In this document: in pieces, positions 22,368 through 60,767 of the stretch
How positions within the stretch are numbered: the first letter of the stretch is position 1
How the letters are laid out: the number at the start of each line of letters is the position of its first letter
Origin: Amoebophrya sp. A120
Lineage: Eukaryota > Protista > Dinoflagellata
DNA length: 64,000 nt
Reading direction: 5' to 3'
NCBI GenBank assembly: GCA_905178155.1
Contig: CAJINV010000003.1
Location: forward strand, 8,189,117-8,253,116
Made by a program: the position numbers and the translations under genes
The notes under the pieces: model-generated
Database searches by the model: none
Told to the model about the DNA's origin: nothing
Seen by the model: the letters and a program-made list of their open reading frames with translations, nothing else

Positions 22368-25236
22368 ATGTCGAAAAACGTGCACACGACGCACACAGTG
22401 TGGAAAAGAGGCCGAAAAATGTATGAAACAATACTTGCAGGAGACACGGATTCGCTATTTGACGACCGGAGCGATAGCGATTCCGAGTATATCAAGCCAC
22501 CGTGCCGCGTGGCCCGAAATGGTGCGGCCTCTATGGAGCTGGATCCGCCGTTTGTATATTTTCTTATTTGAATGTTAGCATTTTTCTTCACGTTTGCAGG
22601 TAGGATTTCGTAGCGGGTAGACACCGACTTTGTTCGTGTTTTTCGTTTGAACGGTTTCCGCGTGCATCTCTCGCAGGCGTGGCGGTTTTACACGATGTCG
22701 CCGGGCTACAACGTTCTGGAGGATGCGAAAAGCCAGCACCTGTACTATATGGCCCGCTCAGGTGATGTTACAGGATCCGGAGCCTCTTTTTCTCCCCTTC
22801 AACGAACCCAGTCATTCGCAGGACGTGCATGACGATTTTTCTCACTTCGCTCACCTACAAGTAGTGCTCAGGTTCGACTCCCCTCTGGGATTTTACAGAG
22901 CAATATACAAGGCAAGCGGAGAAGATTTGTGACGCCAAACTGGCCACATCAGGATAGGCCAAGCTCTCCGTCTAGCATGACAGGTTTGGTAGACTGGAGT
23001 CTGGTCCTGTACAGTGTTGGCCCCAAACCTTGTCAAGCGTGTGAGTACGAGGATATCATTTTATGCCACACAAATCTCTGAAGTATTGCACCTGGAAGAT
23101 GAACAGTTGTGATTGTGACACCTGAGCAGGCCATATACTATCTGAGCGAGTTTCCCTCGGCCTACCGCGTCTTCACCAAGCTGCTGCACGGGGTCTCCAC
23201 CTATGCATTGCAAATATGGCAGCGTCTAGAGGAGTCAAAGTGCAGATGTTTGTCATGCAGGTGCTGTCACATGGACATGGTCCAAGGCAGAGCCTACAGC
23301 ACAGAGAGCTGTGCAATGCCTGTTACTCTGCATGAGAAATCCTCTCTCGCCGTGGCGAAAAATAGACCGCTCTTGCCACTCATGGATGACAGATTTTTGT
23401 GTGACGGACGGAGAGCAGCACAAATTTGCTCACTTCCAGAGGACCCGGACATATTTGCGTTTGATACCACCGGGGTGTTCGTGCTGGATAAAAATCGCCT
23501 CAACCAGCTGCACTTGGACGACGCCATGCAGAGCATGGCGGATCTGAGGATCGTGGATCGCGACCTTCCGGCAGCGCCATCTGGTACAACATCCGCACAA
23601 CTGATTGAAACGCACGAAGAGCAGCAGGGCGAACAACGCCAGGATGAAAAGGTTGACAGTACAACTAGCCAGCCAGCTCCAGAGCCGGAGGCGAACGACG
23701 GCCGACAAAAGTCTACTCTGTCGTCCTTGCTTTCCCGCAATATTAAAAGTACTGCCAGCACGACGACCACGCCAAATTCTACTACGCGGGCAGCTTCAGC
23801 ACACCACCGGCGCGATGATGAGGAAGATGTGCTCGGGTACTTGCGCGAGAATTTCATCGCCATTGAGCACTGGCTCCCCGGGTCCGCAAACATCGAGCAA
23901 AAAGTGGAAATGTGGCGCATGTTCCTGAATGCCGCGGTCGGAGCGGACAACAAGTTATCCGCAGCACTCGAACACAACGCGCTCGCGGAGATGCAACAGC
24001 CGAACCATCCGGCTATCCTCGGCTGCTCGGTGGAACAAGTCGAGGAGGCGTCGACCAAAGCCGCCGGCGTTTTTGCGGGCAGATCTACGGCTGTGGCGGC
24101 CGCCACACCACCCGAAGAACAAGAAGAAGCAGAACCAGAAGCGCAGCGCAAGACGGAGAAGGAAGCAGAAGGTAACGAACGGCAGCAAAATGTTGAAACA
24201 GGAGGCACGACCGACGAGGCCGCTGGTCACGTATTCAAGTACACACTTTGGATTGATCCGCGCCGCATGTCTATCCAAGAAAAAAACTGTGTTAGTGTAA
24301 GTCTTTTGGGAAAACAGCATCACAAGTTTGTCTGCCATGACAGGACAAACTTGTTATGCGCAGATACAAAGGGAAAACACGTAGGAAGCGAGCCGGTCAT
24401 GCATGTCGAGCATGACAAGTGTAACTGTTTGGCATTTTCTGCATCACAGATTTACACTTACACAGTTTTTTTTTGCATAATGTCCGACGACGGGTCCGGC
24501 TGCACGACCCGGACGCCCTCCATGCCCAGCCAGGAAAGTTGCGAAGACAATTACGTATGCATCGCAAATGTAAGTGTGATGTCTGCATGCATTGAAAAAA
24601 TACAAAGGTTTTGTGATGAAGCGGATTTCTGCATGATGAATGCAATTGCAAAGGGTTCAAACCCAGCCACGCTCATGCACGAGCATTGCTTCGGTGCGAC
24701 TGCTCCGCTTCGGGCCCTGAGGAAATCTGTTTTAGCCCCCGAAATCGAGTTTGGCACCGCAGTCTGGAAAATCCACATGATAGACGATGATGATGATGAC
24801 AAATTTGTGGTCGAAGGACCATCCCGAGGCTTTTTAAGGCGCAAGCGCAATGAAAATATTAATCGTATGCCCGTGCTTGGATAAGAACACTGGTGCACAC
24901 TCATGCAATTAGAGCCTCAAGGTCAACGTCAAGCCATGCTCACTTTTCAGATGCAGACCCAGAGATACACATTTAGGCATTGCATAGTGCGATGACGACA
25001 ATGACGGCGGATCTAGCAAGCTCTACCTCGGGATGACACCCGATATGTATTACGACGACGACAATTCCACGGCCTGTCAAGTGCCGTCTCGGCAGCAGTC
25101 GGCCACGGACGAGCGGAGCGAGGGTACTAGTACTACATTTGGAACGGCAGCGTGTGCCGCAGCACGACAAGATACGATCATGGACTCGGAAACTGTGGAG
25201 GACGCGGCTGCGAATAACAGTATAATAAATTCATAA
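22368..25236 (+). CDS. Hypothetical protein, multi-exon, interrupted by four introners (ends approximate)
   Basis: Removing the elements at 22748, 23202, 24272 and 24556 gives a continuous frame (SQHLYYLSEFP; GVSTGVFVL; PRRMSDDG; EDNY..DDDNDGG). Confidence 0.65.
22748..23135. mobile_element. TIR introner (388 bp), TSD TACTA
   Basis: TATGGCCCGCTCAGGTG...CACCTGAGCAGGCCATA; TACTA on both sides; frame restored. Confidence 0.88.
23202..23466. mobile_element. TIR introner, diverged family-A-like (265 bp), TSD CCACC
   Basis: TATGCATTGCAAATATG...CATATTTGCGTTTGATA; CCACC on both sides. Confidence 0.87.
24272..24479. mobile_element. TIR introner, family B (208 bp), TSD ATGTC
   Basis: TATCCAAGAAAAAAACTGTGT...ACACAGT-poly(T)-GCATA; near-identical to 59716-59924. 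Confidence 0.93.
24556..24986. mobile_element. Aged introner (431 bp), now bounded as GT-AG intron 24555-24987
   Basis: TATGCA...TGCATA termini, weak TIR, degenerate TSD TTACG/GTGCG; GT-AG removal is in frame. Confidence 0.7.
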
Positions 25237-38492: not shown

Positions 38493-39749
38493 AAATCGAT
38501 TGAGAATAGAATGTTGCAGCCCGTCTGAATCACATCTAGTTGTCTCTCTGTATAAAACGACCAGCGACCACAAGGAAGCGCAGCGCCCTCGGAGAACTTT
38601 TCTTCTCTGATGTTTTACAAAGAAACCTGACCACGCCTTCCGCACAAAGAACCACGGCGACACAAAAAATCTTTACGCGTCATCGAGGTCGATCCTTCGC
38701 TGAAATCTTACAGATGCCAGAAGTCAGAGAAGGAAGCCTGAAGCGAAGGCCTACCGATCAATTCAGATCTCGCTGTGTAGTTAGCGCTTTTGAGCTTCTG
38801 CGCACGGCCTGTAACACGAGCACGAGGACTAAGACTGTATTTGTACAGGATTGACATACGTACTCTTCATTATCATAGTGTTCCTGTTCGAGCCGAATCG
38901 CTAAATCTAGTAAATGCAATCGGTCGACCTGTATGTAGTGAGAAGAAATGACTACTCGTAAAGATCATCATTCGGCAGCAAAGAGGGATGCGCTGCTTTG
39001 GGTCGTGAGCGAAATGAGCGGGAGGTGTGACCATTCGGATTAGGTATGTGGATGTTTTAGCGTTCTCCATAACTATTACCGCGACTGGCAGCACGGTGCA
39101 GTCTGTACGAGTATGAGTGTCAAGGGGAGAAAACCTCGCAACAGGTAATTCTGAACCTGTAGTTACATACGCATTCAACTTCGATTATAATTTAACCACT
39201 GCTGGCATTGGTCGCGACATGTGCGTGAGGTTAGCTGTCACAGCTTTGGGGGATTGGGCGAAGCCAGACCAGCGAGCACGCGGCAGTTGCGGCCGCGGCA
39301 CCAGCTTGCAGCGACCTTGGGTCGCTACGAGCACGCAGGCCGGCATCTTCGGCCGACTGCGTTGTGCCGTGCGTCGCAGCTGCAGCGCGCTCCCTAATCC
39401 ATGCATCGACGCGGGTGGAGATTGCCTCCCAACGCCCGCTCTCCCAATGCTCCACCGGGCGAGATTCATGCTAGGCCATGGCCATGGCGCGCGGCATGTT
39501 CAGCCAGTGCATGCACTGCAGATCATGCCCGCAAACCAGGGCCATGCTGCCCGTTCTCTACAGCTCTCTATCTTTTCCCAGGGCTGGCTTTCAGATACGC
39601 GCCCATGCGAGTATCTAAGAGCCAGTCGCTGCAGGGAAATACACCCCGAGCTTCGGCTTCGCGCAGTGAGCACGTCCTCAGCGGAGGGGCGCTTGCGCGG
39701 AGCAGAGGCGCGAGGCAGCGACGCACTGGACTCTCCCGGAGCCGGCATC

Positions 39750-41060
39750 GCAAGGGACCACGCAGCACGCTTCCGCTGGGAAACATGCCGCGACGGGGAC
39801 CTACGGAAGCGACTTTGCGCTTTTTCTAAGGTGCTTAGCGTCGCCGGGGACCGCGCGACACGCTTCGGGCGAAGCGTGTTGCGGCGGGGACCACATAGCA
39901 CGCTTCTCTTGAAGCGTGCGTCAGCAGGGGCCACATAGCACGCTTCTCTTGAAGCGTGGCTCGAGGGGGGCCCACGAGGTAGCACCAAGCTCCTAGGGAG
40001 GTGGTGCCTGGGTCACGCAGCAGGCTTCGTGGAAGCGCGGCGCGATGGGGACTGCGGAGCGGACACCAAACCCCGGCAGGGCTGGTGTCGACAGGGACCA
40101 CGCAGCACGCTTCGTACGAAGCGCGCCCCGAGCAGGGGCACTTGCGGGGACGACACCAAGCCGCGGCGGAGCTGGTGTCGACGGGGACCACGTAACGCGC
40201 ATCGCAAAGCGCGTCGGGATGGGGACTCCGACTCACGGAGGGACACGACGCCAAACTTATTGCAAGTTTGCAAGCGTAGACGCGTCGGCGGGGACTACGC
40301 GGCACGCTTCGCTTGAAGCGAGCAGTGATGGGCCTACGGGGCAACAGCAAGGAGGCTCCTCTGTAGCAAGTGGCGTGAGGGCCACGCAGCGTGCCTCGTA
40401 AACGCCCGCCGCGATGGGGACTTACGGAGCCGACACCAACCAAGCCTTGTCAAGTTGGTGCCGGAGGGGACCACACAGCACGCTTCGCAAGAAGCGCGCC
40501 GCGATGGGCGCCTGCGGGGACGACACCAAGAGCTCCCGCGGAGCTGGTGTCGACGGGGACCACAAGCGTCGGCGGAGACCAGATGGCGCGCTTCGCTTGA
40601 AGCGTACCGTGATGGGGACCTACGCGGCAGCACCAAAGAGGCTCCTCGCCTGGAGCTGGCGTGAGGTCCACACAGCGTGCTTCGTAGAAGCACGCCGCGA
40701 TGGGGACCTGCGGAGCCGACACCAACCACGCCCTGCGGAGTTGGTGCCGGAGGGGACCACGCAGAACGCTTTGCAAGCGCGCCGCGATGGGGACCTGCGG
40801 AGGCGACACCAAAGAGCTCGCGCGGAGCTGGTGTCGACGGGGACCACGCAGCACGCTTCGCCTGAAGCGTGCCACGGTGGGGACCCAGCACGAAGCAGCG
40901 CTAAGTGCTTTTGGAGGTGGTGCCACAGGGCCACACAGCGTGCTTCGACGAAGCGCGCAGTGTGTGGACCTGTGGAGCCAGCCGACACCAATCCCCGGCG
41001 CAGTTGGTGGTGGGAGTCGGTGGTAACGGGGACCGGCGCAGCGCGCTTCTTTCGAAGCGT
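39750..41060. repeat. GC-rich degenerate tandem array, ~88-90-bp units
   Basis: Recurrent GGAGCTGGTGTCGACGGGGACCACGCAGCACGCTTCG...AAGCGCGCCGCGATGGGGAC...GACACCAA. Confidence 0.8.
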
Positions 41061-41310
41061 GCCGCCGCGGAGACGCGAGCACACGGCGCCAGGCCTCTGT
41101 CCGAGGCACTGGCGCTGTGCGGCAGGGCGCGCCCATACTGCCATTTCGTGCAGATCTGCGCACAGCAGCAGCACTACCTTGGCGCGCGTGTCCCGCGTCC
41201 CCACTTGCTGCTCGCGCAAGTGGGACTTGGGTTGTTGAGCGCGGCTTGCGGCCACGCCCCAATTGGGGCGGGGGGCCGCGTGGCGGAGTGCGGTAACGCG
41301 CGTCATCATT

Positions 41311-41855
41311 GGAGTGCACCTGCTTGCCAGCACATCCAACAAAGACGTCCCGGGCGTGCAGCTCGGCTTTCGCCGCAGCACAGCCCGGGAAAGCGTTTCC
41401 GCAACCTCTCTCGCGCGCCTTCACTGGAGTGCACCTGCGTGCCAGCACCTCCAGATCCGACCTTCCGGGCGTGCACCTCGGCTTTCGCCGCAGCACCACC
41501 CAGAAGTGCATGGCAGAGTATGGCCGGCGCGTCTTCACTGGAGTGCACCTGCGTGCCAGCACCTCCAGCGTAGACCCCCAAGGCGTGCACCTCAGCTCTC
41601 GCTGCAGCACCACCCTGGAGTGCGTCGCATACTGCCGCCTCGCGCGCCTTCACTGGAGTGCACCTGCTTGCCAGCACCTCCAGATCCGGCCTCCCGGGCG
41701 TGCACCTCGGCTTTCGCCGCAGCACCACCCGGGAGTGCGTGGCAGAGTGCGATCGGCGCGTCTTCGCTGGAGTGCACCTGCGTGCCAGCACCTCCAGCTT
41801 AGACCTCTAGGGCGTGCACCTCAGCTTTCGCCGCAGCACCACCCCGGAGTGCGTC
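41311..41855. repeat. Tandem array of five 114/115-bp units
   Basis: GGAGTGCACCTGC starts at 41311, 41426, 41540, 41655 and 41769 (spacing 115, 114, 115, 114). Confidence 0.9.
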
Positions 41856-42550
41856 CCGCACATCTGCCATGGCTACTCTCTCTTTTCTTTTTGGTGATAA
41901 ACGGCGCAGGGCCGCCGCGGGTGTGTACTTATTCCAAAGCCAGACCGTGCAACACCACACGCAGAGGGGAAACGACAACACGCGCCCGGCGCGCGCCGTT
42001 GCCCCTACAGCGGTGTCGCCCCCGTTAGCTGGCAGCGCTTAACCTCATTTCGCTATTGATAGATATGTTTGACGCGAAATACCAAATAAATATCATCTTG
42101 TTGCTGGTTTTTCTGTGAGTCCTTCTTTGGGTTCACTTTCAGCCCGAGCCGGACTTACGGCTCGTCGAGTTTTGTAGGAAAGAGAAGAACCTCCTTCCAG
42201 CGCAAGTTGAATTTTTCTGTCCGCTGGGTCTATGATCACTATGTATAACTATCGCATTAATATTGTGTCACATAGAATTAGAAAGTGCTCTGCTGGTGCT
42301 GCATTTGCATGTGTAAAACCGCTTTAGTACCCCGTGTAGTTTCAGTTTGATTCGAATTAAAATGCTGCGCCTACGCCACATCACCCACAGACAATAGGGT
42401 AGGAGCGATTATATGTCAAAGACGTTGAACGTTTATCGAGCAAACAAAGCTACAAGGAATAGAAAAATGACGCTACTAAAGAAGTTACCAACGACGCATG
42501 TTGGCAAGTCCAGTCAGCGATTATAGCGACGTGCTAGAGAAGCAGCGACA

Positions 42551-45533
42551 ATGATGCTCCCTCTTGTTTCCAGAGACCAGGATGCGAAGCGCGGTGCTAC
42601 TGAGGACGCAACCTTCGCGGTAGGAATGGCGACTTCAAATTACGCGAAGAACACGTCATCAATCCGGGAGTTTAATATTGCCGAGGATGCGCCGACCTCC
42701 CCGAAGGAGTCTCACAGTCGGTACGTGTCAAGAGCAACGAAGTTCGAGGGGCCTGCCCACGCAGTGTTGAGCACAAGTTCTGAAAATGCCTCTTCCTCCG
42801 AATCTTGTCGTACAAGATGCAGGAGTCGCAGAGCGAAGCTGCGCGGGTCGGCAAGATTTGTGCTCGCGTACCTCGCGCTCCAGACCTTCACAATCGGGGC
42901 TCCTCTCTACGGATTTTTGTCTGCGATCGGGAAGCTTGATCTGCCCCCGCGGGCCGAGAACGCCGACGTGCCCACGTACGCGGCGACCGTGTTTCTCACC
43001 ATGCTGCGGACGTCGCAGCTCGCCGCGTTTCCGGTCTCCTACCTGATTGACCTCGTGGGTGCGCGATTGGGAACCATGTTCGCATCCACCTTGTTTGTAT
43101 TAGGTGCGGTCTTCCTCGGGATTGCGGTTCGACTCGCGGTATCAACTGCAAAAATGTCTGGGTCTGGAAACTTGTGATGCTGGTTGGCGAATCAAGAGAA
43201 CGCCAGAAATGACGGCTCAGCATGACAGGTTTTTGAGTCGCTAGGTGTTGCCTATTCTGCATGAAAAACTGGGTTTTGGCATGACACAAAAGTGGTGCTT
43301 TTGGGCACCTTGCATGACAGACTTGATAGTCATGCTAGCAGAGCATGCCAAACCTGGCATTTTTCCAGACCCAGACATTTTTGCAATCCATACGCGGCCT
43401 CGGAGTGGCAAGCGGACCCGGACCCCGGCCAGCGACCCTTCTTCCTGCTGGGGTCCGCGTGCTTTGGGCTGTCCGCCTGCTTCCAGATTGTCAGCGTGAT
43501 GATGACGCTGCGGACCGTATTCAAGCACGTCATGTCCGAGTTTTCCATCACGCTGTTGAATGGGTGCTACGACAGTTCCGCAATAATGTTCACCATTGTT
43601 GGCGTCTGCAGCACCGCGGCGGGGCGGACCGGGTTTTTCGCCATTCTTGCCGACACCGGTGTTGACCACGCGGCCGACAGCACAAGTGGGAATAAAACTT
43701 CTGATGACCACGGGGGAGCTCCTGCAGGTGTCGCCGAGCAACACCATCAACCTCCGCTGGGAGCAGTCATCAGCGCTACAACGCGTGGTCCGGAGCGACA
43801 CCTTGTTTTGTCTGGTGATGAGCAGGGCTTTTACGCAGCGGAGTCTTTCGGTGTTGGACTCTGGGTCTATGCTTTGTTCGGCGTTGCGCACCTTCTCTTT
43901 ACAGCGTGGCTCTATCCGTCAGAAATGAGTAGCACGCAACAAGGCGGTAGTTTGAAAACACGACTACACGCGGCTGGTGATCATGCAATGGACCTGGCGA
44001 CGCCACTGCTTGTGGAGGACAGTACTATGTCAGGTTCATATGAACGACAATTGCCATTGCGACGCGCACCACGCGAGGAAGAGCGTGACGAGGTGAACGT
44101 GAAAATGGTGGGCCACGACGGAGAACCAGGACAAGAACAACGTCGGCCTGTCATGATTGCCGCCTCAGGTGGTTCCCTTATTTCCGCGGAATCGAGACGA
44201 AGCTCCAGCTCGAGCTCTGCAAGTACGCGGACGGGCCACGGTGAATTCGTGGACAACATGTCGGGGTCCCTCTCTGGATGCTCGGCTCGAACAAACAGTG
44301 ACGAGCCTGGTAGTTGCTGCAGCTCCACGTTCTCCACGCCCGGACCTGCGCGTGCGATCAGTAAGATTGCGCCGGACAAGGTGGCAGCAGCCTCCACGTT
44401 TGGACACGATTTCATGAACATGGCACAAGACGACGAGGACAACGACATGATAATTAGCAAGAACGAAGGCGTGTCTACTTCACTGTCCGCGCCGCAGCCA
44501 GACCCAGAGGACCCTTCTCTGTTGTTGACTACGAGAACAATAAATGCGGTCGTGCGGCAAAAGGAACAACTACCCGAGGAGGAGCAGGACTACCTACCGC
44601 TTGAGAGCGGGCACCCCATGCGCAGTTGGGTGTCGTTACCCGGTAAGAAGGACGTATCGCGGAGCTTCGTCGAAGTCATGGTAGACCGCGACTACGTGCT
44701 ATCGATTCTGTGGTTTGCCGTGCAGTTTCAAAACTTCACGAACTACCTGACCCAAATGCCGGACATCTTGAGCCCGCCAGTACTAAATCTGAGCGGTTGG
44801 TTCTACCCGTGTTCGGTGTTTACTGCGTTCTTGCTCGGCACGCTGTTCAACTACCTGCACAACCCGAGTTATGTGGTCTGCATCACCACCTGTCTTGGAG
44901 TACTTTTTCAACTGCTAGTTTACACCCTGTGCTGCAGCGCGACGACCTCGAGATCAACGCCGCCCGCCATCGCAGAAGCGGCAACAAGAACCTCTGCACC
45001 TACATCTGCTTCCGAAGCCTCGCTGCGCGAAACTCCTGACGATTCTCCAAATTATGGGGTTGCTCCTGGAACTGCTGATCTCCACGGTTTTTCCGTGCTG
45101 CTGCTACTGCCATTCTTCCGATCGGGGTTGTTTACCACCATGTGGATTTTTTGGCCCAGTTTGTGGAAGGACAGCACGCACATCGGCGCCATGTACGGCT
45201 TTGCCTCGCTGTTTGCGTTTGCGTTTTCCAGCTTCTTGATTGCTTTCGTGCTCATGTCGCGTCACACCATCGCGGAAGACGGTACCAAAACGTACTCACC
45301 AGAAAAGGCTGCCAGTATGAACTGGCAGTGGTTTATGAAAACGAAATCTCGCGTCACAGTCACATCCGCGACGTTTTGTAAGGCGTTTTGCCTTATAAAA
45401 CGTCTCCGATGTGACTGTGACGCAAGATTTCGCTTTCATATGGTTTCGCATCTACGCCTCTGTGTCCATCTTCTACTCGATCTACGCAGTGGTCACGCAT
45501 CGCTACCGCGAACAGGCACGCAAACGGTCGTAG
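42551..45533 (+). CDS. MFS transporter, SLC43 (LAT3/4)/FMP42/ApiAT-like
   Basis: Multiple TM helices; YLIDLVGAR loop; ITLLNGCYDSSAIMF resembles the SLC43 motif. Removing the introners at 43140 and 45334 restores frame and a final helix WFRIYASVSIFYSIYAVV. Confidence 0.82.
43140..43392. mobile_element. TIR introner with family-A TIRs (253 bp), TSD CGCGG
   Basis: TATCAACTGCAAAAATGTCTGGGTCTGGAAA...TTTCCAGACCCAGACATTTTTGCAATCCATA; CGCGG on both sides. Confidence 0.93.
45334..45440. mobile_element. Minimal hairpin introner (107 bp), TSD TGGTT
   Basis: TATGAAAACGAAATCTCGCGTCACAGTCACATC...GATGTGACTGTGACGCAAGATTTCGCTTTCATA; the interior is also self-complementary. Confidence 0.92.
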
Positions 45534-48377: not shown

Positions 48378-51300
48378 ATGGATTCTCCATTGGGGCCGTT
48401 TCCTGGGGTGAGCGCTACCGGCACTGCTCCTCACGAGCAACAGCGACATGTTGACATCAATACCCTCGATATGCTGCACCCATCTCAATTATCTGCTGCG
48501 CGACCACCTGCAGACACGAGTAGTCTTAGTTTTGGTAGAAATTATATCACTACCTCCTACGCGGGCGGCCCCACGTCGAGCACGATTGCTACTGGCGTCA
48601 CGTCCCCGTATGCAAATGCAATCCCGCAGCAGCACACCGGCGGAGTCGCCCTAGCGGGAGATAGTACACTCACACCGTGTGCGGCACGAGACCCGGCGAC
48701 TTTTTCTACCCCGACGACAACCACGGTGGCGCAACAGAAAATCAACCTCCTGTCCTCCGCGTCAAACTTTAATCTTGCCCGGAGTCCCACCCCTTGCTCA
48801 GCCTCGTCTGCGGCCATGAAGTTCTGGGTCAATAACCCTTCTAGGGCGTCTACAGCCAACACCCGTTCGTGTAAAGGATCGAGTTCGACGGGCTGCACGA
48901 CGAGCGCGGCAACGAGCGTGATGACCTCTTCTACGACTTCTGTATCCACTGGCCTTCCCGCAGCAAGTTCCCAATCAGTACCGGAAGCCCCACCGGCTCG
49001 TAACTACCAACAGCACAACTCGCTCGTTGTGCCGGCGCCGCCGATTCCGACACCACCCGGCGTACAACAACTGGGGCGTCCATTAGCACAGGGATTGGCT
49101 ATAGCGGAGAAGTTTGCGACCTTGGAGGACTTCTATCCGAGTGCACAACTCCTCCTCCTTTGAATGGCATGAACAGCCTCATATATCATGCATATGACAT
49201 TGACTCATACTCTATCTTTCTTTTTCACGCGGCCGCCCGGACGTCCTGGTGCCGGTAGATTTCCGAAAAAAAGTATGCAAAAGGTACATCGCCGAATGAT
49301 AATGAAAAGGGGACGAGAGCAGCTGAGTTTGACTTTCTGATGCATGAGGAAATTTTAGGGGGAGGAGGACTTGTGCACTTGCACAACTTTTTGGCGCATA
49401 TGTGGAGCGACCTGGATGTACAAAAACGAGGAACCTGGATGAGCTTCGAGGACCCCCAGCTAGTCAACTCCTTTTTGCTCGCTGCCTACACGCGCGGCAT
49501 TGCAGATGAGCCTTTTCCTCACACACCAGTATTAAGCCCATTATTGGAGCAAGATATAATTACAGATAGTTGTTCTACTAAGACCGCTGGCGCTAATAAC
49601 GCGCAAGTAGAAAGCACGACAGACGGCAGAGCTGCATCTGCGTCGGGGCCAAGCCAGCAATCGACCCTTGGTACAATCTTCGACGGCACGGAAGCACATG
49701 ATGTGTCCGCCACCTCCGCGTCCGGAAATCTTCAACAGGGGCGCAGAGCTGGAGGCCGGGGTGGTTCAGGTGCACCGAAGTGCCCGCTGCTGGAGAATAT
49801 GGTCGTGCATCTGTACACCGTGCCAGATCCTCATGATGGGAGTGCAACGATTCAACGTGGTGATGCGGTTGCACTTGCACCCCCATCTTCTCTCGACGCA
49901 GCTGCTCCATTTACAACGCCTCTGACGGCGTTTGTGACGCAGTTGACCCGAGAGCGCGGGACGAGCACATCGCTGAGAACCGCGGCGGGCGGCGCAAATT
50001 TTAATTCCGCAGCGGGGCAGCAGGTTGACATCGAGGATACGGCGGAGTTCGTTTCGCGGATGAGCAGCAGGGTTGCGAAACTGTCATGGTCCTGCGAATT
50101 TTTGGGCTCGAACTTCGAGGAAGCAGTGTCGCACGGGCTCCCCGACGTACTGCAGTCGACGAATCGCCGGAAGCTGCAATGGAACCACTGGCACAGCGTC
50201 TTCTCCGCACAGAAGCCGCTGTATTCGTGGCACCGGCTCGAGCGGGCGGTGTGCAAATTGATCGAGCAGTCGTGGATGCATGGGTGCTTCGCCATCGACG
50301 GCCGCTTCAACTACGGGACGAGTTTCCGCCGCTCGTACCCGAAACGCCGTCCCGGGCGCCGGGCAAAAAAAGATCGAGTTCAACAGACGAGACAGTTGCA
50401 GCAAGATAGCAATATTCCGGAGTCGCATCGCTCGAGCGCTTTGCATTCAAACCTAAACAGCCATGAACAGCATGCTCCGTCGCCGGGGTTCTCGCCGTAC
50501 CAACAGAGCAGATCCGACCAATCGCAGCGCTACGACTCGCTGCCAGAGTCAAACGCAAGTACTATTAGACACTACCCCCAAACGCCCGAAGACAATAATA
50601 TTCCGGACCGCGCAAGCAGTTTTTATTTGTCAACCAGTACTTCTGCAACGACCGGTGCAGGAGGTGCTCAGGCTCACAATAATCTGGGCCGATTTGTTGA
50701 TCCTCTCTATTTCGAGGGCAATGCTAGTACAACAGCAACGTCGCTGCCTGCGACGTCAAATGTAAGTAGCAGTTTCTATTCCTCTCCACCGCCTGTCGTG
50801 CAACACGGTCCGCCCGTCCCGACACCGCCTTACTTTGCCGCTCGCAGTCGCCCGCTGGCGGGCGGGACATATAATCTGGAACAGCATGCTCAGCTGCAAC
50901 ACTTGCCACAAAGCGTCCCTTCGAGCAGACTGAGTCAACAGCACACCGGTTTTCCTTATCAGAATCAAGAGCTGCTGAACCTGCAAATGCAACTGCAACC
51001 GGGAACAAGATTTCCCTCTCAACAACCACATCCTCAGCACTTTAACACTGCGGCAGCGCCCCAGCACTCTGGAATTGTTCAGGCCCCCCTTGTGCATCAC
51101 AACTACTACCAGCAAACGAACCTCTCCAACATGGTTCAAAAAGACAATAACTCACAGCAGTGGGTGGTCGGTGCCGCGAGCAGTTTTGATACAACCGTTC
51201 CCAGCATGATGTGCAAAAACTACACTGACGTTAAGGAACAAGCGCGCCCTACGATTTGTGCACAAGGCGTAGACTTTCCACAAGCTTCCCCTTGTGTTAA

Positions 51301-54300
51301 ACCGGATACCCCTGATGTTAAAATTTGCGAAAACAGCACGCGGCGTGAGATGAAAGCTGCCGCAGCTCGAAATTCCGGCCACCGGCTTCTGGAGGTGTTT
51401 TTCAACAAGGATAAGACGAACGCCGACAAAAATGCAGAAATCCAGCGTCCGAAGTTGCAGTTCCGAACGGAAGGGGACAACGAGGACCTGGTCCAAATGT
51501 GGAAGCTGCACACGAAAGGGGTATCCTGAGGAAAAATCCCCCCTCCCCATATTCGAAAGGCCACGCTTGATGCGCGATCTGTGCACGACACAAATCGCGA
51601 GGGACTCATGAAAGCGCAATTGGCTGCGCTTGTTTGGGCTTCTAGTAGTTCTAGAAGTCTAGCGGTTCAGCATGATACAGATTCTTGCTCCTGTTGTAGG
51701 ATAAAACGCATTTAAAGAAGATGGCCGAGCCCGTGCTCGCTTTCGCTCTCACCTCCCAAGTATGCAGGGCAGTAGAGGGACTTTTTGCGTATACAAATCT
51801 AATCGGCAACACAACTGTTTCTGCCGCTTTATTTTCAATATGGGGAGGGAGGGTTTTTCGTCATGATAAGTGGCAAAATTTGACCACGAGAAGAGGCTCG
51901 CGGACATGCGGCTGGAAAACTTGACCTGGCGACTGTGGTACAAGGCCCGAAGGCATGAACAGCTAACGTTTTTGGCTGACCCGTTGCCCTCGTTGCTGCC
52001 AATCAGGGCCGGTAGGCCTTCCTCGCGAGGAGGGGGCACATATGAACAAGATCTCCGAGAGGAAACACGAATCTTCGAAGACCCCAGTTCTCTCAGCGGA
52101 ATTAGAACCGCCAAGCGGAACGGCCGTGGACGCGTTCGAGAGCGCGACGAGTTCTTTGCCAATCACCAGGCTGACATTGAGGTGGACTCTACCGGGTCAG
52201 TGTCCGTGTACAATTTTGGCCGGAGCCACAGTGCCGAGGGGCGCGTCTTCAATTTGTGGCGCCGGAAGCACAAGCGGCGGATCCTGCGGCGCTTGCTCCA
52301 AGAGGACGTCGAGGTAGAGAGAGTGGCCCAACAAGAAGAAGTTAATAACACGACTGCTGCAGCTGCTGGTTACTCTTCCGGTTCGGGTTGTTCCGCCACG
52401 TCTTCCTCTTGTGAGGAAATGCTATCCGATGTTGCAAAAAATACGGCAACCTGGAACGGTTCTGCCGTTGTTCCAGTGCTGTCATCTTGTTCAACAGCTG
52501 GAGGTCTTCATGCAGCCACTGTTCCTAAAGACGAACACGATCGAGGCAGTGGCAGTGCAGACCACCATTCCACCTCGCGTAGCGGCACTGCCACGGTGTC
52601 CTCTCCACGTTTGCTCCCTACGAAGCAGCAAGAACTATATCAACCGTTACAACACGATACTGGATCCTCTTCACTAGGTGCGCCGCCCGCGGGACGAGCG
52701 AACCCGAACATGGGCCGCGATCTTGCTACTGACGCTCTATTCCGCGTGGTTTTCCGCGATCTTGCTACTGACGCGGGGTTTTCCGCGTGATTTCTGTTAG
52801 GAAATCGCTCGCCCCTGGGCTTTCCGCGTTTCTTTATAGGAAATCTCTTCCTTAGGAGCCGGCCGCTGATCTCCGCGAAAAAAACACGTAGTGGAGGCAA
52901 GCTCCTTCTGATCTTCACTGCGAAACAGAGCGGAGACGAGCTCGGTGGCTAAGGTTTGGGTGGGATAGGGTCTGTGATAAGTATCGGGGTTTCTCCTTTG
53001 ATATGGATCAGACGGTCCGCGATGTCGGACTTTTCTCCTTTGATATGGATCAGACGACTTTTCTCCTTTGATCTGGTAACCAAAGGAGAAAAGTCCGGAC
53101 TTTTCTCCTTGCAAAGGAGAAAAGTCCGCTGGATTGATACCAGAGCGAGCAGCTCCTGGTCCAAGTCCTTCTGTTTTTGCTTCACATCCCTCTGCTTTAG
53201 CATCAAATCCTTCTGCTTTAGCATCAAATCCTTCTGCTTTAGCATCAAATCCTTCTGTTTTAGCATCGATTCCTTCTGCTTTAGCATCCGGTCCTTCTGT
53301 TTTAGCATCAATTCCTTCTGTCTTAGCATCGATTCCTTCTGTTTTTGCATCAATTCCTTCTGTTTTTGCATTTTTCTACATATCACGCGTGCTGTGATAT
53401 CAACAGCACAGTCGACTTTTCTCCTTTTCTTCTTTGATATCATGTGATATCACGTGATATCAAAGGAGAAAAGTCTTTTTTCAAAGTTTAAAGACCCAAG
53501 GCTGTTTATAAGCAAGCTCTGCGATTTACTGTGTTACACATTTCAAACAGTATCAAGATTCCGCCGATTTACTGTGTTACACATTTCAAACAGTATCAAG
53601 ATTCCGCTGCGGTTCGTCAGGTTTGCGACTTAGTGAAACAGCAGGCATTGTCCCTCACAAGGTCGAAAGCATCGCTGTGACCTTGGCCCGCTCTATTGTT
53701 TCGCTGACACATTCTGCCGCCGCCCGGTCTATCAGTCACTGGAGTTCTCAATCAGGTCCGCGACATGTAGCAGCTTGCCTTCTTAGCTATTCCAGTGAAC
53801 TGAAGCAGCCGCAGCTACGTGGAGGCCTTGTTCTTTTTGCCTGACACGAAAATGAAAACGCAATAGGCGTGACAGGTAGCCGCGGCTCGAAAAAAGTTCT
53901 AGCCTGCCCTTGAAAAAATACGCTATTTTCGATGTCGTGTGTAACTGTAACACTTTTTTCCTTCGATACCTGGTGCGCCGCCCGCCGGACGACCGAACCA
54001 AAACATGGGCCGCGATCTTGCTCCTGACGCTCTATTTACTGGATCCTCTTCACCTGGTGGTGTGCTGCCCGCGGGACTAGCGAACCAGAACTATGGCCGT
54101 ACTATCTGCATCTTTTCAAAGTGGATAAAAAAACTTCAGGGTGTCCGCGCATAGGCATTGCGCTGCTTGACCTTTGTCATGTGCCTTTGTCACGCATAAA
54201 ATGCATTGGGGCCATGCGTATCAAGTTATCTAGCTAAGAAGCCGGCCATGTCGCCGCGGCGAGGACTACGCCGCGCACGGACTCGGGTCATTCTTGAGTC

Positions 54301-57300
54301 TTTGGCGACGACCACTTGGCTTCAGAGATAATCATGCCCCCCAAGAGAAGCCGAGCGGCTTCCATCAGCTTCCTGCCCTCCCAATGTGCGGCGGAGTTGC
54401 AGGTGGCGCGTCCCGACTCTTCGATGAAGCAGAAGAAGTCTACGAGCTGGCTATGGGTCACATCCACGGTGGCTCTGCGCTTTTCGCTCGACACCCCCCG
54501 CCCAGCCCTTTCGACAGAGGAAACGCGGACGACCAAGTCGCCAGGCTGCTTGGCTCACTCCGCCACCCCCACGTCGCTGGGAACATCAGCGCCCTCGCCT
54601 TCTTCCTCAATTTCCGCCCTTCCCTGGCCTGCCAGATTTTCTGCTTCTGCGCAGCGCCCTCATGCGCTTGCGTGAGTTATGGGGGCCACTCCACGCGGGC
54701 CACGCTTCAATAGCGCAGCCACATGCGGCAAAGCCCCTCTCGGCGGAGCCTGCGCGCTGCAGCCCCATCGGTATGAATTGCCCTGGTTGGGCTTGGTTGG
54801 GAAAGCTTTCAAGGCCATGGCCGTTTTTGTTGTGATAGAGTTAGAACGAACTCGAGGGGGCGAGCGCGCTGGCAACGCCGTAAACCAGGGGCAGGCCCCG
54901 GCGGCCTACGCCTTCTCCTGCGTACCTCTAGCCCCGGTAGGCCCTGGGGCCTATGCGACCTTCGCCCGTACGCAGGCCGGGATGCCCGGGGCCCCGGCGG
55001 AAAGATGCGCCGAGGGCTTCCGAAGCTGGGAGATTTCTCCTCTGCGAGACCCTTGCAGAGACCCCTGCGAAGCCTGCCGCTTTTTTGATAGCGAACCAGC
55101 CAAGGCGTGCGCCCGCGGTAGGTTTTTTGCGAGGGCCTTCAAGATGTGGGGCGGGATGATTGCTTTCGGAGATTGCGCTTTGGCCGGGTCCTTGCCAGAG
55201 ACCAAGCTGCGGGGCGGCAAAGATTGCCCCACCTGCGAAGCCCTTGGCCCGTTGCGACATGTGTCGCATGAATTAGGCAACCCAGGCAGCCCCGGCAGAA
55301 GTGGCCTACAGCTGTTGGGGGGCCACTGCCCAGAAGTATGCAAGCGCGAGGTGGCCTGATCGCCCTGCGTGCCGTTTTGGATTGTCCGGCGGGCCGAATC
55401 AGGTAAGCGCCAAAGAAGGGGCGGTGGGCCGAGACCAGGCAACACCGCGCTGCCGATGTCGCTCTTTTCATGGCGCCCGCCTAGAGGAGTGGCATCGCGG
55501 TCGCGTAGCTGTTTTGCTCGAATTCCTGGCAGCGCACGCCAGGAGTGTGCTGCGGATCCCAAAAGAATGGCTCTGGTCCGGCTGATTACCTAGTCGCCCG
55601 CTTCGTTTCCCTCAAACTTATTCGCTGCGTGTAGCCTGTGCAGCTTTCTGCTGGTGCTCGGGGTTGTGGGTTAGCCTACCGCCCCTACCCGAATCCGTAG
55701 GCAAGGCCACCGGGAATGTTGGAATGGGGCCGCCCTCTTAGCTAGCTATGCGGAGAATGGGAAAAATAGCACAGGCGTTGGCTAGAGACCACCCATAAAG
55801 AGGCTCGCCTGCTTTGATATCGAAATGCGCGGACCCTGAAATTTTTTTATCTACTTTGAAAAGATGCAGATAGTATGGCCATAAGAACATGGGCCGCGAT
55901 CTTGCTACTGACGCTCTATTTTTGCGGAACGCAGTGGACGAGGGCAGGGCAGACGGGGACGAGGAGCAGGAATCTCAAGAACATAGCTGTGCTCGACCAG
56001 TGACTGCTGCTACTGCACGATCCACGACGAAGAGCAATATAATTACCCCCACTGCACAAGAGCCACATGGCGCCGAGTCCAACAGCTCTTGTACGAGGAC
56101 GACCAGCAGTTGTACTACTACCCCCGAACAGCAGCTGCAGGCACCGAGTTCGTACAGAATCCACTTCAAATCGGCATTGGCGTCCTCTCGTCGCCCGAGC
56201 GTGACTGAGACGGATGCAATAAGAACCACCGGGGTGATGACCAGTGACGAGAGCAGTCTATCGCTGGTTCGTCGACGGAGCACCCGCGGACTCTTGATGC
56301 AGCAGTTCATGTCCACCGTTCGGGGGCTCACATCAAGTGTCGGAAACGCCAACCACGAGTACCACAACTGCTTCCAGAAGGGGCTTGCGTTTGTCCGCGA
56401 CGTGGACGAGGACGAGCAAAGTGGTCGTCCAGACGAGGAAGAGGACCACGCCGTTGATTTTCGAAGGATCCCATACGAACAAGATCTGGCGAACGAGGAC
56501 ACTGTGGCGGACGAAGACCATGATCAGACGGAGTCGTCTCTGATGCAAATGAACTTGGGGCGTCGAACCAAGCACGTTCAAAATAAGAAAGCCCTGGCAG
56601 GTAGAACCAGCCACGCGGCAGGACCTTCCGGAGAAGTAGATGCTGACAGCGAGGACAGGAGGGTCGTCGGCGTCAGTCCTGCTCACCAGCATCACCTTAG
56701 AAAGAGCTGCCCGTTGAATGCCATTATAGCTGTGCAGGACTCTACAACGAGCTCAGCTTCGACTTCGCTCGAGGGAATCGAGATCATGGATCCAGCAGTC
56801 AGCGAGGACAATACGGCCGACGCTAGGTGCTGGTCGACGGATGGGACACCCTCCCCGGCTGCGATTGCCAGAAAGAGCACAAAAGAACGTTCGGTAGTTT
56901 CGGCGGAAACTATTGGCACTAAGACAGCGAATGATCTCGTTGACGGGAGGAGGGAAAGAACAGGAGATACTACCCCACGACAGCACCCCGAGAATACAAC
57001 AGACGACCAAAAAATCACCGTGCTGAGAAAGAACGTATTTTTAAGCAAGAATAGCAATAACGTCCAAGAAAGCAGCTGCAGCACCAGCGGCACTACCACG
57101 ACGAAAGCCTGTCTGGAGGAATGGCTCTGTGGATCGCCCTGTCTCGTGTGCGGAGGGAATTTGAAAAGCGGAGCGCGGGTGTGCGTTTGCGGGATTCCCG
57201 ACCACCGGTATGCTTGGTCGTCTCACCTATTTTCGAGGAACGCTGCGTAACCACGGGAAATTATAAAGCACACCTTTGCATTTTTGCAACTTGATTCGAA

Positions 57301-58294
57301 AGCAACGTATTTTAGAGATTACTGTCGCTGAGTCTAGCTCTAGCACATACACGTAGACAGTCACTGGATCTTTCAGAATTAGACCAAGCGCTTCGCCGTG
57401 GCGGACGCAAATAAGTTGTCGTTTCTTGTTTGGCACAATGAGGAAGACAAAGTACACGCTCGCCTCTGCATTGCTAGGCAGGTAGAACAAAATGACACCC
57501 GAATCACGAGGGACGAGATCATTTCTGTCAGTATACATAGGAACAAGCACGGATGTGCTACTTTTCCGTGTGATAGTACTATGGCAACCCTGCCACCGTC
57601 GAACTGCGCTGCTGGAGAAGAGGTTTTTGTTACAGACCGACAACAGCACCAACAAGTGGGAGATCATGCTGCAGGCCTCCAAGACGGGAATGCTCATCGG
57701 CTGCACGAGAACGCGCAATACGACAATCAAACTGATCTTGATCATGTTAATACGGGCCGTCAGAGAGATGCAGCGGGTCTTCCTGGATCTTGCACGTATC
57801 ATGAAAACAGCAACGAAGATGGAAGCGTCGTCGAAGATGACACACGAGCTAGAAGCAACATTAAGTTGAATCTTCTGGACGTCGCGTGCCCAGAGGAATG
57901 CAGCCTGTGGCAATGGCGCATTTCGTCCGCCACCGCTGCGGCCAACAACTCACCCGCGGCAACGCGACGCGAGAACCAGTACTGGCGGAAGTGGTTCAAG
58001 TTGCAGCAACAGCTCGGGGGCACACCAGCGGGCCAGACCCATTTTCCAGATACCCCATCGGTTCTCTACGATGCGACCCCGTCCCCGAGCAACTCTAACT
58101 CCGTCAATGCATCTTTTCGCCCTGATGAAAAACGAGCTCAGCTGAACTTGTCTCGGCTAGTCCAGCTACTGCAGGTCCAGCAACACCGCCAACAGGAGCA
58201 CAACCATGTAGTACCATCAAACAGCGCCGCGCACTCGCACACCTCTGGCATCATAGAAGTAGAGCCATCGAGATCGACCGGTTCATTCCGCTAA
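48378..58294 (+). CDS. Large low-complexity regulatory-type protein with DUF1752 (RLENxxWR) motif, multiply interrupted
   Basis: Exons ~48378-49133, 49391-51521, 51874-~52742, 53969-54091, 55889-57178, 57383-58294; LVQMWKLHTK...RLENLTWRLW. Splicing across 52743-53968 is unresolved. Confidence 0.62.
49134..49385. mobile_element. TIR introner, family C (252 bp), TSD ACTTC/ACTTT
   Basis: TATCCGAGTGCACAACTCCTCCTCC...GGAGGAGGACTTGTGCACTTGCACA; frame restored (LEDFLAHMW). Confidence 0.83.
51522..51868. mobile_element. TIR introner (347 bp), TSD AGGGG/AGTGG
   Basis: TATCCTGAGGAAAAATCCCCCCTCCCCATATT...AATATGGGGAGGGAGGGTTTTTCGTCATGATA; interrupts the DUF1752 motif and removal is in frame. Confidence 0.88.
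52985..53476. repeat. Palindromic GGAGAAAAGTC cluster enclosing a 21-bp minisatellite
   Basis: GACTTTTCTCC/GGAGAAAAGTC recurs in both orientations; about 10 copies of CCTTCTGCTTTAGCATCAAAT at 53166-53371. Confidence 0.85.
53522..53607. repeat. 43-bp exact tandem duplication
   Basis: CGATTTACTGTGTTACACATTTCAAACAGTATCAAGATTCCGC x2. Confidence 0.9.
54092..55883. mobile_element. 1.8-kb TIR DNA transposon (TATGG...CCATA, ~60-bp TIRs, TSD AGAAC); no intact transposase recognised
   Basis: Left TATGGCCGTACTATCTGCATCTTTTCAAAGTGGATAAAAAAAC..., right ...TTTTTTTATCTACTTTGAAAAGATGCAGATAGTATGGCCATA; AGAAC at 54087-54091 and 55884-55888. Confidence 0.9.
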
Positions 58295-59309
58295 CAGAAG
58301 GTGAAAATCAAAACCAAAAAAGCAGTTGCATGTACTAGCCAAAACGGCATCGAGAATGTAATCGAACTTTGTTGCGCTGGTCCTTGTAGTACTATGTTCG
58401 CTGCGAGAGCGACAGGAAAGATAGAAGCTGCAAGAATGTGATGAAACCAAGTTGAGGAAACAACCTCCTTACGATAAGATGTACGATTGCAATTTTTGGC
58501 GCGATTCCCAGATTTTCTTGAAAAGAAAAAATATACTACATTGTCACTAGATGTTGAAATCAAACTCTTTTGTAATCGCTACAAGGCGTGAAGCTTAAAA
58601 CTAGCGCGAGTCGATGCAGAACGAGCGGTTTTTCAGGAATACCACGTACATTTTTTGTTGCTCCGAATCGCCAAGGAAAAATGTCCATGGTCCAAACACG
58701 ATGATACGTGCACCAAGTAGTCCCAAGCATATTAGACATACTTCGCATTACCCTACCCTACGAAAAAAAAGCTGCCATATTTCCCAATATCATGAACCCC
58801 CTAATTGCTTTGATGCCCCTCGCTTTTCATATGGAGTATTCCATCAGAAAGATACTAAGAAGAAATAAGAAAGTTGCGGCTACAGTGGCTAGTCAAGGAA
58901 CTTCTGAGTTTTGACTTTCTGACACTTTTGGCGATAATACCAAGAAAACTCTTTACGTTACTATTCCTGCCATCACATGTTGATCTATCGTGACAACGAA
59001 GATGGTTGGAACCTCCAAATAACGGGACCCGAACATGTTCTGTGTGTCAAGGTTCCCTGTGATCATAAGTTGCGAAGTTTTGACCTTCAGAAGCTCCAAC
59101 CATAGAGAACTCTTGCCCAACACAAACACGCCTTTGCCCTGGAGTTCGTTGGCGAACTACAATGTTGTCAGGCATTTACACTTTATTCGGTCGTAGCAGG
59201 ACTTTATTTTTTGAAAGAAGTTTCATTCTTTGACTTTACTGTTACTAAACATTCTCAAAGCTAAATACAAGAAGTCTGACTCTGAAAGGGAACGGCAAGC
59301 TGATCTCCC

Positions 59310-60767
59310 ATGTCGCAAATGTTTGGCTCACCGCGCGGTCGTTTGCCCTTGGATGTGTTGCACCAAGGGCTTACGAACCAGTTAGAGGCACTCGGCTTCG
59401 AAGCGCCAATTAGTGACGCGGAGTTGCCTTTTTTTGCCGTGATTCTTTCTATCGGTTTTTTCCTCTCGTTCTTCGGGCACAAGTTGAAAAAAAGCGTTTT
59501 GTTTGTTACCGGCGCCTTGCTTCCGGTGTTTCTGTACACGGTCAATTTCCTGCCGGAAAACCCACCACTGAAAATTATCATCGTGGTCGTGCTCGGGTTA
59601 TGCGCGGGCATTTTCTTTGTGAAGTACCCGAAGTGTGGCCTGGCCGGTGTGGGCATCGTGTGGGGGGCTGCGATGGGGCGGTTTTTGTTCTTCTTGCTGC
59701 AGTCCATCCTGAAGGTATCCAAGAAAAAAACTGTGTTAGTGTAAGTCTTTTGGGAAAACAGCATCACAAGTTTGTCTGCCATGACAGGACAAACTTGTTA
59801 TGCACAGATACAAAGGGAAAACACAGAGGAAGCGAGCCGGTCACGCATGTCGAGCATGACAAGTGTAACCGTTTGGCATTTTCTGCATCACAGATTTACA
59901 CTTACACAGTTTTTTTCTTGCATAGAAGGACCAGGTATTCACGCCCAACAAGGAAGCGATCAACGTGGGATGCATCGCCGTCTCCGCGACCGCGGGCGGT
60001 CTTCTGGTCGCTGGCTGCTTATCGCAAGAAAAAACTGTTTCACTGTGAACTTGTGATGCAGAGACCGGAGCACCAAAGGGCTTGTCTTGCTACACCTGCA
60101 TAGAACGTTGGAGTTTCAACCGTGGTTTGCCTTATGGGAAATGCGCGCATGGCAAATTTTCCGTGTCATGTGTAACAAACTTGTAAATGCAGATCTTGCA
60201 AAAAAATCACCACAGTGAAACAGTTTTTTCGTGGGATACTGTTTTAGCAAGCTGTACTGCTTGGTGATCCCCTTCGTCGGGGCGGTTTTGGGGGCGGACG
60301 CGCTGGCACACGTCCTGATCATCGTGGCCCACAAGTACTGGAAGCGGATCCGCGGGTACTTTCCCTTGGAGACACCCCTGCTGATCAACCACGACCTGGA
60401 AGATTCGGAGTCGCTGCACAAGTACCTGGAAGAATTGAAACGCTCCGGAGAACAGGTGTTCGAAGACGTCTCCAGTCTATTCGGTGCGGGGGACGAAGCT
60501 GGTGCTGCAACCTCGTCGTCCTCCTCCTTCCGCGATTTTCTACACCAGGCGGAAAAAAGTTTGGTCAAGTACCGCTACCCCTGGGGGATTTGGGCGGCCT
60601 GTTTCGTGTTCTGTTTCATCGTTGGCGTGAAGTTGCAGTGCAGGGAGTACCGCAAAGAGAAACGGGAAAAGCAGCGGCTGCACCTAGCCGAGGAATCCAG
60701 TGACGAGGAGCCTCTATTGGCGCATCCGGCCTACCGTTCCCGCCCCATCGGGCAGCGCTTGGTATAG
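59310..60767 (+). CDS. DUF4203/TMEM198-like multi-pass membrane protein (start uncertain)
   Basis: IGFFLSFFGHKLKKSVLFVTGA pattern and several TM helices; removing the introners at 59716 and 60020 gives a continuous frame. Confidence 0.72.
59716..59924. mobile_element. TIR introner, family B (209 bp), TSD GAAGG
   Basis: Near-identical to 24272-24479; the flanks give GT-AG. Confidence 0.93.
60020..60238. mobile_element. TIR introner, family-B-related (219 bp), TSD CTGCT/CTGTT
   Basis: TATCGCAAGAAAAAACTGTTTCACTGTG...CACAGTGAAACAGTTTTTTCGTGGGATA. Confidence 0.9.

Follow-up and report, generated by a model that had tools for sequence, protein, structure and literature searches.

A 1.8-kb transposon-like element, probably removed as a non-canonical intron, in Amoebophrya sp. 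A120 and its relation to the short introners around it

What mobilizes the introners of Amoebophrya, and what machinery splices them, are open questions in the field; Farhat et al. found neither a transposase nor U1 snRNA in A120 (PMC7789003). A 64,000-nt stretch of Amoebophrya sp. A120 (the window, to whose positions all coordinates refer) holds a 1.8-kb element inside a coding exon. From its termini and the length of its target-site duplication (TSD), an earlier note had taken this element for the candidate parent of the short introners in the window, within an IS3EU-like lineage. Is it the source of the introners, or an introner itself? We consider it quite probable that the element is a long, low-copy, non-autonomous terminal-inverted-repeat (TIR) transposon turned non-canonical intron (introner), and that it is a sister of the short introners, not their parent. 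It answers neither of the two open questions, but would extend exact non-canonical removal to 1.8 kb.

The element proper covers 54092-55883 (1792 nt), and the range 54087-55888 takes in both copies of the TSD. Its TIRs aligned over 61 and 59 nt, with one 2-nt gap and mismatches at three positions (E 1e-18, blastn inside the window). The host exon into which it inserted carries a short tandem repeat, whose third copy is the interrupted one, and because both other copies show an uninterrupted site of the same length, the duplication length is fixed at 5 bp. Direct comparison of the flanks gave five of five matching letters at 5 bp, as against one of four at 4 bp and one of six at 6 bp. A TIR element with a perfect AGAAC TSD inside an exon, as the earlier note had described it, was therefore confirmed. 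Further inward, a mirrored 21-mer at equal offset from the two ends was identical at 18 of 21 positions, a value attained by 0/300 shuffles, and a weaker mirrored pair agreed at 11 of 14, attained by 8/1000. These subterminal motifs look like conserved binding sites of a formerly longer inverted repeat. Rfam gave no match inside the element.

To follow the element in transcripts, four of 12 listed sequencing runs were compared over 51200-60500. X3 and X6, two samples of one study, were taken by guess to be of RNA type, and X1 is of DNA type. Contigs from X3 (5750 nt) and X6 (4433 nt) joined 54086 directly to 55884 with no extra letters, skipping 1797 nt, which equals the element plus one TSD copy. 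Further skips, also with no extra letters, were found at 51520-51871, 52618-53972 and 57246-57578, so that the neighbouring intervening sequences skipped in these contigs number three, or two or more. The joined exons form a frame of 1085 codons that is an exact substring of the public A120 protein P0006, whereas retention of the element brings a stop 21 codons in. The host reading is thus restored on removal, as had been claimed. P0006 carries the spliced sequence, so in the public gene model the element is already an intron. Public A120 proteins are matched at 100% identity by two proteins of the window: P0006 by the exon 3′ of the element, and P0001 by a short-chain dehydrogenase exon. In X1, 51200-52735 and 55885-59739 are contiguous and unspliced, and none of the X3/X6 joints is among those listed for X1, which has 49 more joints besides.

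The exact borders of the intron were considered in the light of the other joints in the same gene. The joint at 51522 allows cuts at -2/+3, -1/+4 and 0/+5 relative to the TIR ends, and that at 57248 allows -2/+3 and -1/+4. The joint ending at 53972 is unambiguous and lies exactly 4 nt past an introner-type right end. As -1/+4 is the only cut common to the three, the likely cut sites lie 1 nt ahead of the left TIR and 4 nt beyond the right one, which gives CT..AA. The earlier suggestion of a CT-AA intron therefore stands as far as the skip itself is concerned, with the register likely; the joint that it proposed for a cDNA test at 54090/55885 was seen in the presumed RNA-type runs X3 and X6, although for a CT..AA intron the 3′ coordinate becomes 55887/55888. 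For A120 fam2, 6681/9716 published donors are N-T (PMC12130899), agreeing with -1/+4 on the donor side. As a concrete rule, the -1/+4 register can be tested genome-wide on imperfect TSDs.

These data suggest the following mechanism. An integrase-type DDE transposase encoded elsewhere likely recognized the TAT ends, possibly with the aid of the mirrored motifs further inward, and made a 5-nt staggered cut. Pairing of the two TIRs is predicted for the pre-mRNA and would hold the ends together across 1.7 kb; the minimum free energy structure predicted for 54060-55920 has the TIR stem closed (duplex -93.9 kcal/mol). Cuts at -1/+4 would likely be made whatever the flanking letters, and the codons present before insertion would be exactly restored. 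The catalyst would most likely be the host's modified spliceosome, with the stem replacing normal splice-site recognition, though at little better than an even chance against a separate enzyme.

For the removal step only, the strongest alternative is an activity that recognizes the stem, cuts and ligates without a spliceosome, a route put forward for the nonconventional introns of euglenids, though we hold it to be rather less than even. The inferred intron ends in the P0006 gene (GT..TG, CT..TG, CT..AA and GT..AC) have no fixed acceptor, and U1 was not detected in A120 (PMC7789003). The TIR/TSD introns of euglenids, moreover, form no lariats and are released as circles of full length (review PMC11282704), and they have in common with the 1.8-kb element TIR-paired ends, TSD-like junction repeats, non-canonical borders and lengths that can reach kilobases. 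They belong, however, to an unrelated lineage with other end motifs, and the circular excised products are theirs (PMC11282704). A120 also retains nearly all spliceosomal proteins together with U2/U4/U5/U6 (PMC7789003), which counts against such an activity.

The interior was then analysed for traces of a gene. All six frames are interrupted, with 8-18 stops each. Codon bias was tested on dinucleotide shuffles, as mononucleotide shuffles were too lenient (a control intron reached p = 0), and only 54291-54908 kept its signal under these conditions. On the minus strand, 54291-54662 displayed host-like codon bias (p = 0.005) and scored 0.065 under the host codon model, compared with 0.060-0.062 for host exons. 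Among the controls, one of nine non-coding sequences reached p = 0.03 and one of two host exons only p = 0.07. The single-sequence model of the 88-codon open part was a four-strand meander with a helix (predicted local distance difference test, pLDDT, 67), while that of the 212-aa minus frame was unusable (pLDDT 49). For the plus frame, atlas recognition was 968 for a 227-aa part, which looks unlike protein.

None of the protein and structure searches gave a usable match for the frames of the interior. Pfam, applied to 6/6 frames, gave no DDE or integrase match and only DUF3678 at E 0.04, below the cut-off, and 0/4 queries matched in PHROGs, including one 158-aa piece from another frame; the four frames other than the two discussed (16, 18, 18 and 16 stops) were covered by Pfam and, for that piece, PHROGs. 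With phmmer, the minus frame had 0 matches at E≤0.001 against 1.84 billion representatives, A120 proteins included, and a word-seeded search of the plus frame against proteins of 237-756 aa gave 0 at E≤0.1. A PDB sequence search yielded no usable match for the coding remnant, and the ESM atlas nothing at ≥0.9 for an 87-aa piece and no usable match for the 227-aa piece. Foldseek found none at E≤0.001 for the 88-aa model in PDB or viral sets. VIA-align placed the same model best on a bunyavirus cap-binding domain (Z 5.9, root-mean-square deviation 2.6, 69 aligned), within the range of common arrangements. Metagenome and viral contigs gave 571 and 9 pattern matches to the 88-aa frame, none of which was confirmed. 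A GC-rich interior with broken open reading frames (ORFs) and no recognizable DDE motif, as noted earlier, was accordingly what we found.

The origin of this remnant admits a second reading, compatible with the first. In a Pack-type element, non-autonomous ends enclose a captured fragment of a host gene, here 54291-54662 as cargo. The host-exon-like score of the remnant is what such cargo would show, and gene fragments are carried by GingerRoot elements (PMC6839031). However, the minus frame has no public protein at E≤0.001, though A120 host proteins were present in a related collection, and the p = 0.03 of one non-coding control tempers the codon-bias signal. We regard capture as unlikely.

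Is the element, then, related to the short introners? When the window was scanned for TAT..ATA ends flanked by a 5-bp TSD, 15 elements came up, as compared with 0-1 in each of 10 shuffles; other TSD lengths gave 0 at 3 bp, 0 at 6 bp and 1 at 4 bp. A sixteenth element (57248-57575) was added from the RNA-type joints. The 32 ends of these 16 elements all start with TA, 31 of them with TAT, and have either C or G as their fourth letter. Since all ends share this start, a single lineage served by one kind of transposase is plausible. Beyond the ends, the pattern was different. In an all-against-all blastn (E≤0.01), short elements were linked to one another, and none of the 15 short ones to the 1.8-kb element. 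In 14 of these 15, no more than 3-5 of the first 7 nt agree with it. The motif AAA occupies positions 11-13 of both ends in 12 of the 15, while the 1.8-kb element has CTA there at both ends. Its GC content of 0.60 also compares with 0.40-0.50 in the short elements.

One element of the window represents a minority end type: 22748-23135 (388 nt) has TATGGCC at both ends, a 17-nt TIR and no AAA motif. Its first 7 nt at either end equal those of the 1.8-kb element, in line with the earlier note, and then the sequences diverge (of the 27 positions from nt 4 to nt 30, 9 and 11 agree). The match amounts to four free positions, for which the chance in one of 15 elements is about 6% under uniform letters. 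As the sequence in common with the 15 short elements ends within the first 3-7 nt, the claim of parentage is unsupported. Within one lineage of TA ends and 5-bp TSDs, the short introners likely form sister families and not deletion products of the 1.8-kb element, which by its sequence would be their sister at most.

The element was also compared with published A120 introners. These start with TAT and have inverted repeats, direct repeats of 3-5 nt at the exon borders, non-canonical splice sites and no internal transposase (Farhat et al. 2021, PMC7789003). The TAT start, inverted repeats, border direct repeats and non-canonical removal are common to both. The published introners, however, were analysed at 40-1000 bp and have 8-20-nt inverted repeats and a TAT-7nt-AAA consensus, whereas the 1.8-kb element (1797 nt removed) has TIRs of about 60 nt, mirrored subterminal motifs, no AAA and few copies. 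Judged by its ends, which depart from the consensus, it does not belong to the family of the abundant short introners.

Copy number was estimated from X1. Summed contig depth is 102-159 over the element and 25-27 in the flanking exons, depth not being equal to copy number. Three distinct contigs, 12.7-13.9% different, overlap 54723-55060, each at depth 20-26. At least three relatives, perhaps about five, thus exist at ≥85% identity; with at least three at 86-87% identity the element is repeated in the genome, as A120-type introners are. Depths of the short introners reach 4,600-26,000, and by contrast the 1.8-kb element is low-copy. A joint of 54882 to 55831 on opposite strands (54 letters, X1 and X3) is most simply explained by an internally deleted relative, but fits other readings as well. 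In metagenome contigs, the TIR pattern of the element had 0 matches. With its structured ends and coding remnant, this low-copy family offers a handle for finding longer relatives.

Known transposon groups were compared by ends, TSD and size. Termini of IS3EU elements are always TA..TA, with a TSD usually of 6 bp (PMC10045372), and fungal members have TAYGG..CCRTA termini and TIRs over 30 bp (PMC12730594). GingerRoot elements have a 6-bp TSD, TIRs of 100-150 bp and lengths of 3.9-12.9 kb (PMC6839031). The 1.8-kb element has TA..TA, even TAYGG..CCRTA, ends and TIRs above 30 bp, but its TSD is 5 bp and no DDE transposase was detected; splicing-out is not reported for these transposons in the available parts of the three sources. 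The IS3EU-like assignment of the earlier note thus holds for the termini and not for the TSD, and with no transposase found in the searches above the element is not filed as IS3EU, although it probably moved like an IS3EU-type element. Ginger1 and Ginger2 have TG..CA termini (PMC6839031), which set them apart from it.

All 58 A120 family rows in Dataset S2 of Gozashti et al. 2025 (PMC12130899) were also compared, by description only, as the tables hold no sequences. None is near 1790 bp and none is filed as IS3EU, and neither "IS3EU" nor the TIR strings of the element occur in the 14 supplements. Family 38 (808 bp, 5 copies, TIR 49-53 bp, intron-forming) is listed with "5-bp TSD, TA/TA Termini" and filed under Ginger; according to the main text, its ORFs resemble Copia/Gypsy regions (integrase of long-terminal-repeat elements) and it is without Ginger termini and TSDs. 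TA/TA ends and the 5-bp TSD are common to family 38 and our element, whereas the 808-bp length is that of family 38, and Copia/Gypsy-like ORFs were not found in the element. Further A120 TIR families in the dataset measure 627-1619 bp, family 86 among them (1619 bp, TIR 84 bp, 4 copies). Introners of A120 with TA ends, a 5-bp TSD and TIRs, at 0.6-1.6 kb, are already in print, as is a link to an integrase-like parent (PMC12130899). A literature search found no paper joining Amoebophrya and IS3EU.

Two further readings assign the element a place nearer to the transposase. By the bolder one, it descends by internal deletion from an integrase-type transposon that is as yet undescribed, has TA ends and a 5-bp TSD, is a sister of IS3EU/GingerRoot and encodes the transposase that mobilizes tens of thousands of A120 introners, and it is removed from RNA by a purely geometric -1/+4 rule. 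This we think improbable; if true, removal would be traceless for any target, in either orientation and across kilobases, and the few relatives would be a trail to the missing transposase. Less probable still is that the element is a decayed autonomous or intermediate member of an IS3EU/GingerRoot-type family that supplies the transposase for the short introners. Its IS3EU-matching termini, the TAT end and 5-bp TSD common to long and short elements, the coding-like remnant and structured ends are consistent with this, and the 54882/55831 joint, in its simplest interpretation, would mean that the family makes shorter derivatives. However, Pfam, PHROGs, phmmer (minus frame) and the word-seeded search (plus frame) revealed no DDE or integrase similarity, the TSD is 5 and not 6 bp, similarity to the short elements ends at nt 3-7, and 1.8 kb is below the GingerRoot range (PMC6839031).

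Several points weigh against our preferred reading, that of a non-autonomous TIR transposon turned intron. Taken alone, the element leaves its splice register ambiguous, since the 54086/55884 joint can slide by 5 nt, and the decisive +4 comes from a single atypical intron without a proper TIR at its left end. Acceptors in the fam2 row are A-N in 6598/9716 cases, which a pure -1/+4 rule does not predict (PMC12130899); this could reflect annotations that mix placements or orientations. That X3 and X6 are RNA is a guess, both belong to a single study, and related data may underlie the public gene model, so that these lines of evidence are not independent. Run X10, compared as raw reads, placed 0 reads on the region and counts as no test. 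As to a transposase encoded elsewhere, no such domain was found in the 35 scanned of the window's 80 ORFs of ≥150 aa, and none was found in A120 by Farhat et al. (PMC7789003). The coding-like remnant, finally, may point to descent from an autonomous element. An empty DNA allele, or carry-over of DNA, as the source of the joined form is, on the other hand, scarcely credible: no record gives X3 and X6 as RNA, but their contigs leave out four distinct intervening sequences, of which two have imperfect TSDs, to give one long frame, and X1 has intervening sequences unspliced.

Coordinates of the element, its parts and the host features are collected in the following table.

Table 1. Features of the 1.8-kb element and its host gene (window positions)
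Feature	Position	Strand	Basis or remark
Left TSD copy (5 bp, AGAAC)	54087..54091	.	Direct sequence reading and empty-site comparison
Right TSD copy (5 bp, AGAAC)	55884..55888	.	Direct sequence reading and empty-site comparison
Left TIR, 61 nt, begins TATGG	54092..54152	+	Self-alignment
Right TIR, 59 nt	55825..55883	-	Self-alignment
Inferred intron, 1797 nt, CT..AA	54091..55887	+	Length from joints; register inferred from three other joints
Mirrored subterminal 21-mer, left	54227..54247	+	136-156 nt from left end
Mirrored subterminal 21-mer, right	55728..55748	-	136-156 nt from right end
Second, weaker mirrored motif	54277..54290 (partner 55685-55698)	+	186-199 nt from each end; 11/14
Likely decayed coding remnant, one internal stop; 88-codon open part 54291-54554	54291..54662	-	Host-like codon bias, single-sequence model
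353 codons with a single stop; probably partly a shadow of the minus-strand frame	54298..55359	+	p 0.004-0.054 by null model
Host exon 5′ of element (gene for P0006, 1940 aa)	53973..54090	+	RNA-type joints, public protein
Host exon 3′ of element	55888..57246	+	RNA-type joints, public protein
Host tandem repeat copy A, empty-site paralogue, now within 1355-nt intron	52677..52741	+	Repeat comparison
Host tandem repeat copy B, empty-site paralogue	53972..54036	+	Repeat comparison

In the host gene, a GATA_AreA-like motif lies at 51909-51944 (exon 51872-52617; Pfam PF08550, E 5e-4, just under the cut-off), directly after an introner junction; apart from it, Pfam found no domain in P0006. The intron at 52618-53972 (1355 nt, CT..TG, non-canonical) begins in an apparent former exon and engulfs one host tandem-repeat copy as well as a multi-copy repeat (about 52790-53500; X1 depth 260-530). 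It ends 4 nt past an introner-type right end at 53968, for which the best left-TIR partner is 53458 and not the donor; choice of the 52618 donor by pairing with that end was rejected (duplex rank 522/2027). Within the multi-copy repeat, 53124-53392 is a 21-nt tandem repeat open in several frames, and a 52-nt hairpin at 53423-53474 had sub-threshold matches to microRNA models.

The same gene carries a 252-nt introner at 49134-49385, with TAT at its left end, TGT at its right end (read inward) and a TSD mismatch at position 5. TG..CA ends are typical of integrase-type elements, but the one substitution may be decay. Elsewhere in the window, GC-rich clusters of degenerate 40-, 87- and 115-nt repeats at 39700-42000 have long open frames on both strands with no Pfam match, and the minus strand of the non-coding control at 8800-9171, the one with codon bias at p = 0.03, may hold a small gene. 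The introner at 45334-45440 (107 nt) is fully palindromic, with 51-nt arms, a 5-nt loop and a 5-bp TSD. Introner copies at 24272-24479 and 59716-59924 are 97% identical and belong to a very high-copy family (X1 depth about 20,000), which points to recent activity.

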